Positions 2,147-7,491 of a DNA stretch of 31,024 bases are shown here, piece after piece. The position numbers and the translations under genes were made by a program. Each line of letters starts with the position of its first letter. Position 1 is the stretch's first letter. Below the pieces are notes generated by a model. That model saw nothing but the letters and a program-made list of their open reading frames with translations. It was not told where the DNA came from and searched no databases. Source of the DNA: Escherichia coli (GTDB lineage: Bacteria; Pseudomonadota; Gammaproteobacteria; Enterobacterales; Enterobacteriaceae); NCBI RefSeq assembly GCF_003334305.1, contig NZ_QOWS01000035.1. One strand, given 5' to 3'.

Positions 2147-3436
2147 ATGAAAGTATTAGTGATTGGTAACGGCGGGCGCGAGCACGCGCTGGCCTGGAAA
2201 GCGGCCCAGTCGCCGCTGGTTGAGACTGTTTTTGTTGCTCCGGGTAATGCAGGCACTGCACTGGAACCCGCGCTGCAAAACGTTGCTATTGGCGTGACCG
2301 ATATCCCGGCGCTGTTGGATTTCGCACAAAACGAAAAGATTGATCTGACCATCGTCGGCCCGGAAGCGCCGCTGGTGAAAGGCGTGGTCGATACCTTCCG
2401 CGCCGCCGGGCTGAAAATCTTCGGCCCAACCGCAGGTGCGGCCCAACTGGAAGGCTCAAAAGCGTTTACCAAAGATTTCCTGGCCCGCCATAAGATCCCT
2501 ACGGCGGAATACCAGAACTTCACCGAGGTAGAACCTGCGCTGGCGTATCTGCGTGAGAAAGGCGCGCCAATCGTCATTAAAGCGGACGGTCTGGCTGCCG
2601 GGAAAGGCGTTATCGTGGCGATGACGCTGGAAGAAGCGGAAGCGGCTGTTCACGATATGCTGGCGGGCAACGCTTTTGGCGACGCGGGTCATCGCATCGT
2701 TATCGAAGAGTTCCTCGATGGCGAAGAAGCGAGCTTTATCGTGATGGTAGACGGCGAGCATGTGCTGCCGATGGCCACCAGCCAGGATCACAAACGCGTA
2801 GGCGATAAAGATACCGGACCAAACACGGGCGGGATGGGCGCTTACTCCCCCGCGCCGGTAGTAACCGATGAAGTTCATCAGCGCACCATGGAACGTATCA
2901 TCTGGCCAACCGTGAAAGGCATGGCGGCGGAAGGCAACACCTACACCGGTTTTCTCTACGCGGGCCTGATGATCGACAAACAGGGCAATCCGAAGGTTAT
3001 CGAATTTAACTGCCGCTTTGGCGATCCAGAAACCCAGCCGATTATGCTGCGCATGAAGTCCGATCTGGTTGAGCTCTGCCTGGCGGCCTGTGAAGGCAAA
3101 CTGGACGAGAAAACGTCAGAGTGGGATGAACGCGCTTCTCTCGGCGTGGTGATGGCTGCGGGTGGATATCCGGGTGATTACCGCACCGGTGACGTGATCC
3201 ACGGCCTGCCGCTGGAAGAAGTGGCAGGCGGCAAAGTGTTCCACGCGGGCACGAAACTGGCGGATAACGAGCAGGTAGTGACCAGCGGCGGGCGCGTACT
3301 GTGCGTCACCGCGCTGGGTCATACCGTGGCAGAAGCGCAGAAACGCGCTTATGCCTTAATGACCGATATTCACTGGGACGACTGCTTCTGCCGGAAAGAT
3401 ATCGGCTGGCGCGCTATCGAACGCGAGCAGAACTAA
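2147..3436 (+). CDS. purD: phosphoribosylamine-glycine ligase (GAR synthetase)
   Basis: 429-aa ORF with ATP-grasp-type sequence, recognised as PurD; forms an operon with purH. Confidence 0.96.
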   Translation: MKVLVIGNGGREHALAWKAAQSPLVETVFVAPGNAGTALEPALQNVAIGVTDIPALLDFAQNEKIDLTIVGPEAPLVKGVVDTFRAAGLKIFGPTAGAAQLEGSKAFTKDFLARHKIPTAEYQNFTEVEPALAYLREKGAPIVIKADGLAAGKGVIVAMTLEEAEAAVHDMLAGNAFGDAGHRIVIEEFLDGEEASFIVMVDGEHVLPMATSQDHKRVGDKDTGPNTGGMGAYSPAPVVTDEVHQRTMERIIWPTVKGMAAEGNTYTGFLYAGLMIDKQGNPKVIEFNCRFGDPETQPIMLRMKSDLVELCLAACEGKLDEKTSEWDERASLGVVMAAGGYPGDYRTGDVIHGLPLEEVAGGKVFHAGTKLADNEQVVTSGGRVLCVTALGHTVAEAQKRAYALMTDIHWDDCFCRKDIGWRAIEREQN

Positions 3437-4758
3437 CGCGACAGTTTTGCCAATAGCGTTTTGCGCGTGATCCCTAACTGACGGGCGGCTTCGGTTTTGT
3501 TGCCGCCCGTTTTCTCCAGTGCCGCCAGAATCACTTCTTTTTCGACTTCCACCAGCGGCTGAATATCCTGACTTTGCCCCAGCGGGATCGGCGTACTGGC
3601 AATCGCCAGCGGCAGCTCGCGTTCGGAAATATATTCCCCGGTCAGCAGCACCACCGACCTTTCCACCGCGTTTTCCAGTTCACGAATGTTTCCCGGCCAG
3701 TCGTAGTGGATCAGCAAATCCATCGCCTGTGGCGTAAAGCCTTTTACCGCCTTGCGATTACGCTCGGCAAAACGCTGAAGAAAATGGCTAGCCAGCAGAG
3801 GGATATCCTCCCGCCGTTGCCGCAGCGATGGTACTTCAATCGCCACCACATTCAGGCGATAGTAGAGATCCTGGCGAAAACGCCCGGCATTCACCTCTGC
3901 GGCAAGATCGCGATGGGTCGCCGCAATCAGCCGGACATCAACCGAGATAGTCTGGTTGCTACCGACACGCTGAACTTCGCGCTCCTGAATCGCACGCAGC
4001 AGACGCACCTGCATCATCGGCGAGATATCGCCAATTTCATCGAGAAACAGCGTGCCGCCGTCCGCCTCAACAAAGCGCCCTTCCCGGCGTTTATCGGCTC
4101 CAGTAAACGCCCCTTTTTCGTGACCGAACAATTCAGATTCCAGTAAGGATTCGTTGAGTGCCGCACAGTTGAGCGTTACCAGCGGTTTTTCGCTACGTGC
4201 GCTACTGGCGTGAATCGCCCTGGCGACCAGCTCTTTACCGGTGCCGGAATCGCCGTGGATCAGTACCGTGGCTTCCGATGGCGCGACGAGGGCGATTTCA
4301 CTGAGCAGGTGTTGCATCGCCGGGCTTTTACCGACCATACCGAACTGGCTGGCAGTCACCGCAGGTGTTTCAGCATCAATACTGTGCGTATGCGCGAGCG
4401 CTTTTTCCAGCGTCGCCTGTAGGTTATCGAAATCCAGCGGCTTGATGAGATAATCCAGCGCCCCAGTTTTCAGTGCCTCTACCGCCGTCTCGACGCTGGA
4501 GTACGCAGTCATAATCAGCACCGGAATTGCCGGGTTTAACGCTTTGATCTCTTTCAGCGTGGCGATGCCGTCCATCTCCGCCATTCGCACATCGCAAAGC
4601 ACAAGATCAAAAACCTGTTCCCGCACCTGCTCCAGCGCCTGTCGCCCGCTGTTCGCCAGCGCGACGTTATAGCCCCAGCCGCGCAGTAAAGCCTGCAAAA
4701 TAGTGCAGTGGCTAATGTCATCATCCACCACCAGAATATCGATATTATCGTGCGTCAT
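3433..4758 (-). CDS. zraR: sigma-54-dependent two-component response regulator (NtrC family)
   Basis: 441 aa. Receiver domain (VVDDD...D...K), AAA+ sigma-54 activation domain with Walker A GDSGTGKE and GAFTGA motif, C-terminal HTH. Overlaps zraS by 4 nt. Confidence 0.95.
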
Positions 4759-6131
4759 CCTTGTGGGTCCTTACGCGTAATATTGACCGGAAGCCAGAGG
4801 GTGAACGTTGAGCCTTTTCCCTCCTGGCTTGCGACCTGAATTGTACCACCGTGTTGTTCAACAATATTATGCACGACCGCCAGCCCCAATCCGGTGCCTT
4901 CGGCTTTGGTGGTGAAGTACGGAGTGAAGATGGCTTCAAGCTGATCTGCCGCAATTCCCTTACCGCTGTCGGTAACGCTGATTTTCACGCCCGCGCCGCT
5001 TTCGCTGACCGTCACGCTAATCACGCCATGCTGACCAATCGCCTGAATAGCATTGAGATAGAGATTCAACAGGACCTGAGTCAGCCTGTCCGGATCGGCC
5101 TGAATTTCCGGTAATGTGTCGTTGGCGGTAAAGCGTAACTGGATCTCCCGGCTGTTTGCATCCTGGCTTACCAGCTGTAATGAGTGGTTAATCAGCGTGT
5201 TGAGATCCACCGCCTGCAAAGCCAGATGCGTTGGCTTAACCAGTTCCAGCAACTCGCTTACCACGCGGTTTAAACGGTCGGCTTCTTTCGCCATCACCTG
5301 CGCCAATTGATGCGCTTCTCCCCCTGCTGGCGCGCGTTCGGCAAAGTATTTCGCCAGTCCTTTAATCGAGGAAAGTGGGTTACGGATTTCGTGGGCAACG
5401 CCTGCCGCAAGATGCCCCAGCGCCACCAGCTTCTCTTTGCGCTTCATTTCATCTTGTAGAAGCTGGCGCGAGCGCAGATAGCGGCGATACCAGAAGAATG
5501 ACAATACGCTTGCCAGCAAGACCGTCGCCAGGGCGAAGAGGATAATCAGGGTGTTTCTCTGCTCACGATCTTCGGCACTCACAATATTACTGGCGTCGAA
5601 AGCGATGAAAATTGCTTGTGGTGTTGCGGCATACTGCTGCATATGGCGCATCCGGTGCATTCCAGCAGCAAACATCGGTTGAAACTGGCGATAAATTTCC
5701 AGAACAGGCTCGCCGTCTGCGCTATCGATCCGCCGCCACGCTTCTTCATCTCCAGGATGTAACTGCTGCATTTCCTGCGGGGAATAAAGCTGTTTTCCCA
5801 CCATGCCGGAGTTGCTATGCATCACGATTGTTCCTTGTTCATCCGTGACCGCAAACCAACGTACTCCAGGCTGCCCGGCCATTTCTTCCAGTAAGGCCTG
5901 CTGCTGCGCATGATGCATGCGCATCCCCATGCCGACGCGCGAGCCGGATTCAAGAGCGCGAATAAGTACACTGCCTTTTTCCAGCAGCGTTTGTCTGGCG
6001 GCGGCAGTCTCGCGCCCATAATCGCGAATCACCGTCACCGCAAACAACCCTACCAGCCCAACAATGACCACGGGGAGGATCGCGCTTAACCATTTAGCTA
6101 AGGAGTCTTTAGAACGTTGCATAAAACGCAT
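4755..6131 (-). CDS. zraS: sensor histidine kinase
   Basis: 458 aa. Two transmembrane segments around a periplasmic domain, H-box (HEIRNPL) and HATPase motifs (DxGxG, GxGLGL). No in-frame start further upstream (stop 14 codons up). Confidence 0.93.
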   Translation of the reverse strand: MRFMQRSKDSLAKWLSAILPVVIVGLVGLFAVTVIRDYGRETAAARQTLLEKGSVLIRALESGSRVGMGMRMHHAQQQALLEEMAGQPGVRWFAVTDEQGTIVMHSNSGMVGKQLYSPQEMQQLHPGDEEAWRRIDSADGEPVLEIYRQFQPMFAAGMHRMRHMQQYAATPQAIFIAFDASNIVSAEDREQRNTLIILFALATVLLASVLSFFWYRRYLRSRQLLQDEMKRKEKLVALGHLAAGVAHEIRNPLSSIKGLAKYFAERAPAGGEAHQLAQVMAKEADRLNRVVSELLELVKPTHLALQAVDLNTLINHSLQLVSQDANSREIQLRFTANDTLPEIQADPDRLTQVLLNLYLNAIQAIGQHGVISVTVSESGAGVKISVTDSGKGIAADQLEAIFTPYFTTKAEGTGLGLAVVHNIVEQHGGTIQVASQEGKGSTFTLWLPVNITRKDPQG

Positions 6132-6162
6132 CTTCTTCTTTGCCTGCTCATCCCTTTCTGAC

Positions 6163-6178
6163 AGCAGAAATCATGCCA
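6163..6178 (-). promoter_or_regulatory. sigma-54 promoter for zraSR
   Basis: Minus strand TGGCAT-gattt-CTGCT with GG/GC spacing of 12, about 30 nt upstream of the zraS ATG. Confidence 0.6.
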
Positions 6179-6229
6179 TCTTTTATCAGCGCTTACCCTG
6201 CGCTGTAACACAAAGGCTTAAGTTTCAAT

Positions 6230-6275
6230 GAGTAAAAATGACTCGCTACCCGCAGCAGGCGAGTCATTTTTACTC
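6230..6275. promoter_or_regulatory. ZraR upstream activator site (perfect inverted repeat)
   Basis: gagtaaaaatgactcgc (6230-6246) and gcgagtcatttttactc (6259-6275) are exact reverse complements separated by 12 bp, lying between two divergent sigma-54 promoters. Confidence 0.75.
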
Positions 6276-6317
6276 GTTTATCATGCCAGATTACCCGTCA
6301 TATCAGCGTTTCATCGT

Positions 6318-6333
6318 TGGCACGGAAGATGCA
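6318..6333 (+). promoter_or_regulatory. sigma-54 promoter for zraP
   Basis: TGGCAC (6318-6323) and TGCA (6330-6333), GG-to-GC spacing 12, about 35 nt upstream of the zraP ATG. Confidence 0.7.
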
Positions 6334-6368
6334 ATACCCGAAGTAAGACAACCACTGGAGGATTAACC

Positions 6369-6794
6369 ATGAAACGGAACACGAAAATTGCCCTGGTAAT
6401 GATGGCGCTTTCAGCAATGGCGATGGGATCGACATCTGCATTTGCTCACGGCGGACACGGTATGTGGCAGCAAAATGCCGCGCCTTTGACCAGCGAACAA
6501 CAGACAGCGTGGCAGAAAATCCATAATGACTTTTACGCTCAAAGCAGCGCACTGCAACAGCAACTGGTGACGAAGCGTTATGAATACAATGCCCTGTTAG
6601 CCGCGAACCCACCGGATAGCAGCAAAATTAACGCGGTCGCCAAAGAGATGGAGAATTTGCGTCAGTCGTTAGATGAGTTACGGGTGAAACGAGATATCGC
6701 GATGGCTGAAGCGGGTATTCCGCGCGGAGCCGGAATGGGCATGGGCTACGGCGGCTGCGGTGGTGGCGGTCATATGGGTATGGGCCACTGGTAA
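6369..6794 (+). CDS. zraP: periplasmic zinc-responsive chaperone (CpxP-like), signal peptide, Gly/His/Met-rich C-terminus
   Basis: Internal ATG at 6369 preceded by SD ggagga at 6355-6360. Product starts MKRNTKIALVMMALSAMAMGSTSAFA (signal peptide). The ORF-track start at 6228 runs through the promoter/UAS and is rejected. Confidence 0.9.
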   Translation: MKRNTKIALVMMALSAMAMGSTSAFAHGGHGMWQQNAAPLTSEQQTAWQKIHNDFYAQSSALQQQLVTKRYEYNALLAANPPDSSKINAVAKEMENLRQSLDELRVKRDIAMAEAGIPRGAGMGMGYGGCGGGGHMGMGHW

Positions 6795-6795
6795 A

Positions 6796-7491
6796 TCAGA
6801 ACGTTTTCTCGTTGGGTTGCCAGCGACAGAAATCAGAGTTTGCCACTAACAGTAATTGCGAACCTTCGGGCGCTTCCAGCCATGCCACGCTGACATCAAC
6901 AGAAGAGCGGCTCTGGCGGCGCTCGATATGCGCTATCGCCTGCGAATCTAAATCAGGTTTAATGGTTTGCCCTTCGCAGGTGGTCACGGTCTGTTCCATC
7001 GCATGCCAGCGCCCCTGGCGCAGCACGACTCTCCCCTGACGTAAGGCATCGCTAATCTGGCGGATCTGATCAGCACGATAACGGTATAAATCGATTTGGT
7101 CGTTAGAAAGCTGCTGCTTTTCCCCATCGGATTCACGTTGCATAAAGCTCAGATCACCGCGATCGTCAAAACGCGCGCGAATGTTCACCGGCGGTTTGCT
7201 GTAAACATTGATATTGATGAGCGTGAGGTTATCGCCCTGCCAGCGATACTCTCGCGTCGTGGTATCGCCACTGCGCCACGGGCTAAACACGGCAAGCAGA
7301 TGCACATTATCGCCGCTGTCTTTTCGCCAGATGCGTACCGCGCCCTGGTCTTCAGCAAATCCACTGGCGGTAAAGGGAGGAAGTGAAGAGTTGTGACTAC
7401 AGGCAGTGAGAAACAGAGCGCCTGCCAGCATCAATGATCGACGCCAGAAAGACAAAAGGGGTGAAACCACCCCTTCGTTAAAACTGTTCAC
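6796..7491 (-). CDS. yjaH: putative lipoprotein of unknown function (YjaH-like)
   Basis: ORF with lipoprotein-type signal (WRRSLMLAGALFLTAC, lipobox LTAC). Start is uncertain: GTG at 7497 or 7491, or ATG at 7431. I chose 7491 because it gives 231 aa, the length I recall for YjaH; no clear SD at any candidate. Confidence 0.7.
   Translation of the reverse strand: MNSFNEGVVSPLLSFWRRSLMLAGALFLTACSHNSSLPPFTASGFAEDQGAVRIWRKDSGDNVHLLAVFSPWRSGDTTTREYRWQGDNLTLININVYSKPPVNIRARFDDRGDLSFMQRESDGEKQQLSNDQIDLYRYRADQIRQISDALRQGRVVLRQGRWHAMEQTVTTCEGQTIKPDLDSQAIAHIERRQSRSSVDVSVAWLEAPEGSQLLLVANSDFCRWQPNEKTF
7444..7476 (-). terminator. intrinsic terminator downstream of hupA
   Basis: Minus strand AGGGGTG-GUUU-CACCCCT hairpin followed by TTTTGTCTTTCT, about 30 nt after the hupA stop. 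Confidence 0.75.

Follow-up and report, generated by a model that had tools for sequence, protein, structure and literature searches.

How can two divergent transcription units that belong to one signalling system be controlled from the single spacer that separates them? The question is raised by the zraSR and zraP genes of Escherichia coli as they occur in the window (the whole 31,024-nt stretch of DNA that was analysed). The spacer between them is very probably a bidirectional ZraPSR control region, in which two sigma-54 promoters are served by a shared two-box ZraR enhancer with looping. The divergent sigma-54 promoters of zraP and zraSR (hydHG), and their dependence on ZraR, were reportedly described already by Leonhartsberger et al. 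in 2001. The region is thus known and catalogued: RegulonDB and EcoCyc include its promoters, which have found wide use in zinc and lead biosensors. The present check is mainly a validation, in that both promoters and the enhancer had been located correctly from raw sequence. A minor and mildly new contribution is the conserved geometry of the region, together with an 11-bp loss in Escherichia and a conserved ACACAAA block. The geometry (box consensus GRGTAAAAATGACYC, 31–33 bp between boxes, ~60 bp to the promoters, the 11-bp loss) could aid promoter engineering or the prediction of ZraR sites.

Table 1. Features of the zraSR/zraP locus, in coordinates of the window.
Feature	Position	Strand	Remarks
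zraR	3433..4758	-	sigma-54-dependent response regulator (enhancer-binding protein)
zraS	4755..6131	-	sensor histidine kinase, first gene of the zraSR operon
zraS/zraP spacer	6132..6368		237 bp, between the divergent starts at 6131 (minus) and 6369 (plus)
zraSR sigma-54 promoter ATGGCATGATTTCTGCT	6163..6179	-	GG 6177-6176, GC 6165-6164
ACACAAA(C) block	6208..6214		flanked by the zraS promoter and box 1; ~-59 relative to the predicted zraS start
Left repeat arm GAGTAAAAATGACTCGC	6230..6246		17 bp, exact reverse complement of the right arm
ZraR box 1 GAGTAAAAATGACTC	6230..6244		in the left repeat arm; candidate ZraR contact, conserved in 78 loci
Inter-box spacer	6245..6260		16 nt here, 16-18 nt in relatives; sequence variable, length constrained
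Right repeat arm GCGAGTCATTTTTACTC	6259..6275		17 bp, exact reverse complement of the left arm
ZraR box 2 GAGTCATTTTTACTC	6261..6275		in the right repeat arm, box 1 inverted; candidate ZraR contact, conserved in 78 loci
zraP sigma-54 promoter TTGGCACGGAAGATGCA	6317..6333	+	GG 6319-6320, GC 6331-6332
zraP	6369..6794	+	periplasmic zinc-dependent chaperone, accessory protein of the ZraSR system

The three genes (Table 1) are identified by NCBIfam equivalog models, each matched well above its curated cut-off: ZraR by NF007689 (995 bits, cut-off 760), ZraS by NF007688 (887 bits, cut-off 479) and ZraP by NF008584 (274 bits, cut-off 200). The ZraR match spans the full length of its model. The protein consists of a receiver domain, an AAA+ domain with the GAFTGA motif (the loop that contacts sigma-54) and a C-terminal HTH, and its translation also contains the Walker A sequence GDSGTGKE. 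Residues 141–441 match PDB 1OJL, a crystal entry named “ZraR” with six chains, and ZraR orthologues have Pfam matches to Response_reg, Sigma54_activat and HTH_8. A 501-bp segment around the spacer occurs as a single copy in 5,421 of 5,426 complete E. coli genomes and is annotated as zraS/zraP in those 5,421; the window is therefore a segment of the E. coli chromosome. The copy of the spacer found here is 100% identical to that of several sequenced strains. The divergent arrangement of zraP and zraSR is accompanied by conserved synteny with yjaH, hupA, yjaG and nfi, the downstream neighbors being genes for a DUF1481 protein, HU-alpha, a DUF416 protein, endonuclease V and HemE. There is no substantive difference from the zraP-zraSR (hydHG) region described in E. 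coli and Salmonella: locus, promoters, genes and activator are all the same. The initial annotation was thus right to assign the region to the established zinc-responsive ZraSR system.

What is the evidence that both promoters depend on sigma-54? Two -24/-12 motifs lie in the one spacer, each oriented toward its own gene. The core of the zraS motif (TGGCATGATTTCTGCT, minus strand, 6178 to 6163) reads TGGCAT-GATTT-CTGCT, and that of the zraP motif (TGGCACGGAAGATGCA, plus strand, 6318–6333) reads TGGCAC-GGAAG-ATGCA, with the canonical GG-N10-GC. The former had been given in the initial annotation exactly as it stands, TGGCAT-N5-CTGCT on the minus strand. The latter had been placed correctly and written one base short, as TGGCAC-N5-TGCA where the sequence is TGGCAC-N5-ATGCA. 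A motif match alone is weak evidence, because the plain consensus TGGCAC-N5-TTGCW, with up to two mismatches allowed, shows no enrichment in the window (23 matches, 19.5 expected). Since that search does not discriminate, a position weight matrix (PWM) was adopted for which Table 1 of PMC4591121 supplied 40 E. coli sigma-54 sites verified by ChIP-seq, with the zraP and zraS sites left out. Among the ~62,000 positions on both strands of the window, the zraS site has the highest score (17.9 bits) and the zraP site the second highest (15.4 bits), with ~0.2 sites of at least 15.4 bits expected per shuffled window. The earlier reading of two opposed -24/-12 promoters around a repeat is thus borne out by the two top-scoring positions, both identical to published sites. 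The next scores belong to 30814–30830 (minus strand, 14.6 bits), 11159–11175 (plus strand, 14.4 bits) and 10751–10767 (plus strand, 13.4 bits); the first two of these lack the GG doublet. No sigma-70-like promoter was found in a scan of 6000–6900.

Several published data sets bear on the same two sites. First, they appear in Table 1 of Bonocora 2015 as OS38 (TTGGCACGGAAGATGCA) and OS39 (ATGGCATGATTTCTGCT), which are attributed to zraP and zraS and given predicted starts 25 nt and 21 nt upstream of these genes, respectively (PMC4591121). These are separate sigma-54 ChIP-seq peaks, one centered on each motif, and they were obtained from cells grown without added zinc (PMC4591121). Second, the zraP and zraS sequences in the list of known sigma-54 promoters in Table 1 of Zhao 2010 are identical to those found here (PMC2831329). 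Induction of sigma-54 raised zraP 4.1-fold and zraS 3.5-fold, and deletion of rpoN lowered them 3.1-fold and 2.3-fold, respectively (PMC2831329). Third, ChIP-chip placed sigma-54 holoenzyme on the orthologous Salmonella sites, TGGCACGGAAGATGCAAG (zraP) and TGGCATGATCTCTGCTTA (Samuels et al. 2013, PMC3844500), and in that species the two operons depend on sigma-54 (PMC3844500; reviewed in PMC4987338).

The positions at which transcription begins follow from the rule used in PMC4591121, which puts the zraS start at ~6152, 21 nt before the zraS ATG, and the zraP start at ~6344, 25 nt before the zraP ATG. In 2015, EcoCyc carried both promoters as “predicted”, not experimentally confirmed (PMC4591121), and a search of the accessible papers for mapped 5' ends of zraP or zraSR found none; the exact start sites given here are likewise predictions. 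A GGAGG Shine-Dalgarno sequence lies ~7 nt upstream of the zraP ATG at 6369. A longer ORF of 188 aa (6228–6794), the ATG of which lies inside ZraR box 1, runs in frame into zraP, and the database ZraP entries P0001, P0004 and P0005 (174–186 aa) have N termini that look over-extended. Such long N termini are doubtful given the predicted start at ~6344 and the GGAGG ahead of the ATG at 6369.

There is also published evidence that ZraR acts on this spacer. In genomic SELEX with purified ZraR, the spacer was the single high-affinity target, accounting for 81 of 86 clones (PMC8249747), and ZraR ChIP-exo gave peaks upstream of both zraP and zraSR (PMC7657598). Deletion of zraR lowered zraS by a log2 value of 3.18 with zinc and by only 0.02 without zinc (PMC7657598). 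This zinc-dependent drop is direct evidence for the positive autoregulatory loop proposed in the initial annotation. The loop is not purely positive, however, since ZraP has been described as repressing ZraSR (PMC4987338, PMC7657598). SELEX and ChIP-exo locate ZraR at the level of the spacer, not of base pairs. Rome et al. (2018) reportedly found 25 extra ChIP-seq targets.

Where within the spacer might ZraR bind? The most conspicuous feature is an inverted repeat whose two 17-bp arms have 12 nt (TACCCGCAGCAG) between them. At 95% it reaches 20 nt, and among the perfect inverted repeats of the window with spacers of up to 40 nt it is the longest, the runner-up having arms of 12 bp. In 100 shuffled sequences the longest arm was 9.8 on average and at most 12; analytically, 7e-5 arms of at least 17 are expected. 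The perfect 17-bp repeat noted in the initial annotation is therefore present and exceptional for the window. It could in principle be a nucleic-acid structure (an RNA hairpin, a terminator or a DNA cruciform) and not a pair of protein sites at all, and a single strand does fold at -18.8 kcal/mol, with z = -8.7 relative to shuffles. Nevertheless, this explanation is scarcely credible. The repeat lies between divergent genes and upstream of both predicted starts, meaning that it would be in neither transcript; a scan of 6000–6900 found no intrinsic terminator with a T-run; and a whole-window Rfam search gave no match in the spacer. Comparison with relatives points the same way. The perfect 17-bp complementarity is specific to Escherichia, and the outer GC pair (6245–6246) varies even within that genus. 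In other genera the arms lose their mutual complementarity without compensation from arm to arm; in C. amalonaticus, for example, box 1 has GGGT..ACCC and box 2 has GAGT..ACTC, with the consensus and the spacing still kept.

What is conserved is better described as two protein sites. The comparison covers 78 loci with 28 distinct architectures from at least five genera, including Escherichia species, Citrobacter, Salmonella, Kosakonia oryziphila, “Enterobacter” lignolyticus, C. rodentium and metagenome contigs. A genome scan with the ZraP protein alone reached just Escherichia and Citrobacter, and the wider taxa came from protein look-ups and from a metagenome scan for the pair of 11-bp box cores, the gap between them being free to vary from 15 to 25 nt. 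Across these loci the spacer has four strong phylogenetic footprints, namely the two promoters and two 15-bp boxes, and the remainder is poorly conserved. Both promoter motifs are nearly invariant, and the box consensus GRGTAAAAATGACYC and its inverse are kept in all 78 loci. Each box by itself is an imperfect dyad of the form GAGT-N7-ACTC around the core GT-N7-AC. As read from these sequences, the functional unit is the two 15-bp inverted ZraR boxes, not the 17-bp hairpin-like repeat as such. The boxes are also the likely exact contacts of ZraR, given their conservation, the binding data for the spacer and the work of Leonhartsberger et al. (2001), who reportedly observed binding of phosphorylated HydG/ZraR to “two inverted repeats separated by a 14 bp spacer” in the zra region. 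A spacer of 14 bp agrees with the two boxes when 16 bp are counted for each.

Some observations on the boxes stand apart from this argument. Covariation within the boxes was considered for positions 2 and 14, which change from A/T to G/C in Citrobacter, and was rejected: GAGT..ACCC and GGGT..ACTC both occur, so the two positions are semi-independent. In a set of more distant loci (L022, L023, L027, L033, L036, L041, L060 and others), where ZraP has ~51%–57% identity, ZraS ~61%–66% and ZraR ~84%, both boxes and both promoters are kept, with box centers 32 or 33 bp apart and not 31. The metagenome scan also returned an unrelated long perfect hairpin, GTAAAAATGACGAAAAGAAACGATCGTTTTTTTTCGTCATTTTTAC, with a 24-nt gap, which made up 43 of 120 matches (L015, L016, L020, L021 and others). 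It shares the 11-bp cores by chance and lacks the flanks of the ZraR boxes.

Could the boxes belong to another regulator, such as a repressor, NtrC or NorR, with ZraR acting elsewhere in the spacer? The published binding data leave room for this, as they place ZraR on the spacer and not on particular base pairs. Moreover, the GT-N7-AC core is common to NorR sites, and zraP also rises under nitrogen limitation (quoted in PMC4591121). That rise occurs without binding of NtrC at zraP by ChIP-seq (quoted in the same paper), and it could possibly reflect cross-talk or another signal. We nevertheless regard a different occupant of the boxes as highly improbable. The boxes are the only strongly conserved elements of the spacer other than the promoters, and no further box-like sequence was found in the window. 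Among the loci from the paired-box scan, the boxes co-occur only with zraP and zraSR; indeed, all 65 of the 65 metagenomic loci with full boxes are flanked by zraP and zraS homologues.

The geometry of the spacer suggests how the two ZraR boxes might work. With respect to the predicted starts, the center of box 1 (6237) is at -85 for zraS and -107 for zraP, and the center of box 2 (6268) is at -76 for zraP and -116 for zraS. Dyad-symmetric sites thus lie upstream of both promoters within the range of roughly 70–150 bp used as a criterion for enhancers. In the 78 loci the box centers are 31, 32 or 33 bp apart. The best reading is a pair of ZraR dimer sites with ~three helical turns between them, an arrangement like that of NtrC enhancers, and we propose that both boxes face one side of the DNA, their centers being 31 bp apart here. 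At NtrC sites, dimers cooperate on one face of the helix.

An alternative arrangement is that each promoter relies mainly on the box nearer to it (zraSR on box 1, zraP on box 2), such that the spacer would hold two adjacent single-site enhancers. Each box is an imperfect dyad able to hold a dimer, and in most genera there is near mirror symmetry, with each promoter GG ~60–63 bp from the nearer box, as would suit such a division of labor. On the other hand, the distance between the boxes is held to 31–33 bp although the sequence between them varies freely, which is expected if two dimers cooperate on one face of the helix, and one dimer site alone would be insufficient to build a hexamer. Separate enhancers are therefore unlikely, though they merit more weight than either a nucleic-acid structure or a different regulator. 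By analogy with NtrC, the two boxes would jointly form one enhancer for both promoters.

The distances from this putative shared enhancer to its two promoters are not constrained to the same degree. From the center of box 1 to the GG of the zraS promoter the distance is 59.5–60.5 bp in 77 of 78 loci. The lone exception is a Citrobacter-like metagenome contig (L100, ~1127–1172) in which the zraS promoter is 9 bp nearer (50.5 vs 59.5 bp); either genuine variation or a mistake in the assembly might explain this. From the center of box 2 to the GG of the zraP promoter the distance is 50.5–51.5 bp in Escherichia and 60.5–64.5 bp in other taxa. With a total range of 50.5–64.5 bp, strict helical phasing is not established on the zraP side. 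The possibility that box spacing compensates for the distance from box 2 to the promoter was considered and rejected, compensation being only partial (sums of 93.5–96.5). The short distance in Escherichia reflects the absence of one helical turn of DNA (11 bp) from the stretch that links box 2 to the zraP promoter, around 6276–6290. These 11 bp are present in Citrobacter, Salmonella, Kosakonia and “Enterobacter” lignolyticus (comparison of L006–L014, ~2396–2420). The deletion junction in Escherichia creates a second copy of ATCATGCCA at 6280–6288, and on the minus strand this copy contains an orphan -24-like TGGCAT without a -12 partner.

How would the DNA between enhancer and promoter be bent? 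No convincing IHF site was found between the enhancer and either promoter: the only matches to the IHF consensus have two mismatches, are about as frequent as chance predicts (1.6 per 237 bp) and are not conserved. The ACACAAA block is moderately conserved in Escherichia and Citrobacter and is weaker in Salmonella and Kosakonia; it too has only a two-mismatch match to the IHF consensus, and the match itself is not conserved. The fixed distance on the zraS side, the loss of exactly 11 bp in Escherichia and the lack of a recognizable IHF site together suggest looping over ~60 bp that depends on the face of the helix and that might use an unrecognized bend element, for example ACACAAA. This suggestion is tentative, and we consider it more doubtful than probable.

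What mechanism might connect these parts? Sigma-54 polymerase is held in closed complexes at both outward-facing promoters, as ChIP-seq of cells grown without added zinc shows (PMC4591121). In the presence of zinc or envelope stress, ZraS would be activated and ZraR phosphorylated, and ZraR dimers on the two head-to-head boxes would nucleate an AAA+ hexamer. The ZraR oligomer would loop to either promoter, where ATP hydrolysis, acting via the GAFTGA loop, would open the closed complex. One enhancer could in this way drive both zraP, the effector, and zraSR, the regulator operon, resulting in positive autoregulation, and ZraP would feed back negatively on ZraS. Hexamer assembly and looping are modeled on NtrC. 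None of the observations speaks against this scheme.

How does this arrangement compare with known enhancers? At glnAp2, a sigma-54 promoter is preceded by two dyad NtrC sites at a distance of ~three helical turns from each other. The zra spacer resembles this NtrC enhancer in having two putative dimer sites on one face of the helix, with box centers 31–33 bp apart, and likewise in having no obvious IHF site. The activators belong to the same family of phosphorylated response regulators, with ZraR scoring 459 bits on the NtrC model, which is below the cut-off. The differences are in the sequence recognized (TGCACC-N5-GGTGCA for NtrC, GRGTAAAAATGACYC for the zra boxes), in the distance, the zra enhancer being nearer (-76 to -116) than that of glnAp2, and in the direction of action, since the zra enhancer, with a sigma-54 promoter on each side, would, unlike that of glnAp2, work both ways. 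The NorR enhancer of norR-norVW is also similar, with inverted-repeat sites, a GT-N7-AC core and divergent genes, and the HTH of NorR is related to that of ZraR (ZraR scores 357 bits on the NorR model). NorR has three sites and IHF, and only norVW is sigma-54 dependent, whereas the zra spacer has two sites, no clear IHF site and two divergent promoters that are both sigma-54 dependent. A third comparison is hycA-hypA, where FhlA serves as the one activator for back-to-back sigma-54 promoters in one short spacer; a distance of 128 bp separates the ChIP-seq sites of these promoters, OS27 and OS28 (PMC4591121). FhlA belongs to another branch of activators, sensing formate and not being part of a two-component system, and its site, CATTTCGTACGAAATG, differs from the zra box.

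Elsewhere in the window, three Rfam matches score above the gathering score: a TPP riboswitch in the thiC leader (11777–11877, plus strand), the sRNA sroH (17570–17730, plus strand) and a member of the “P26” family (27066–27127, minus strand).
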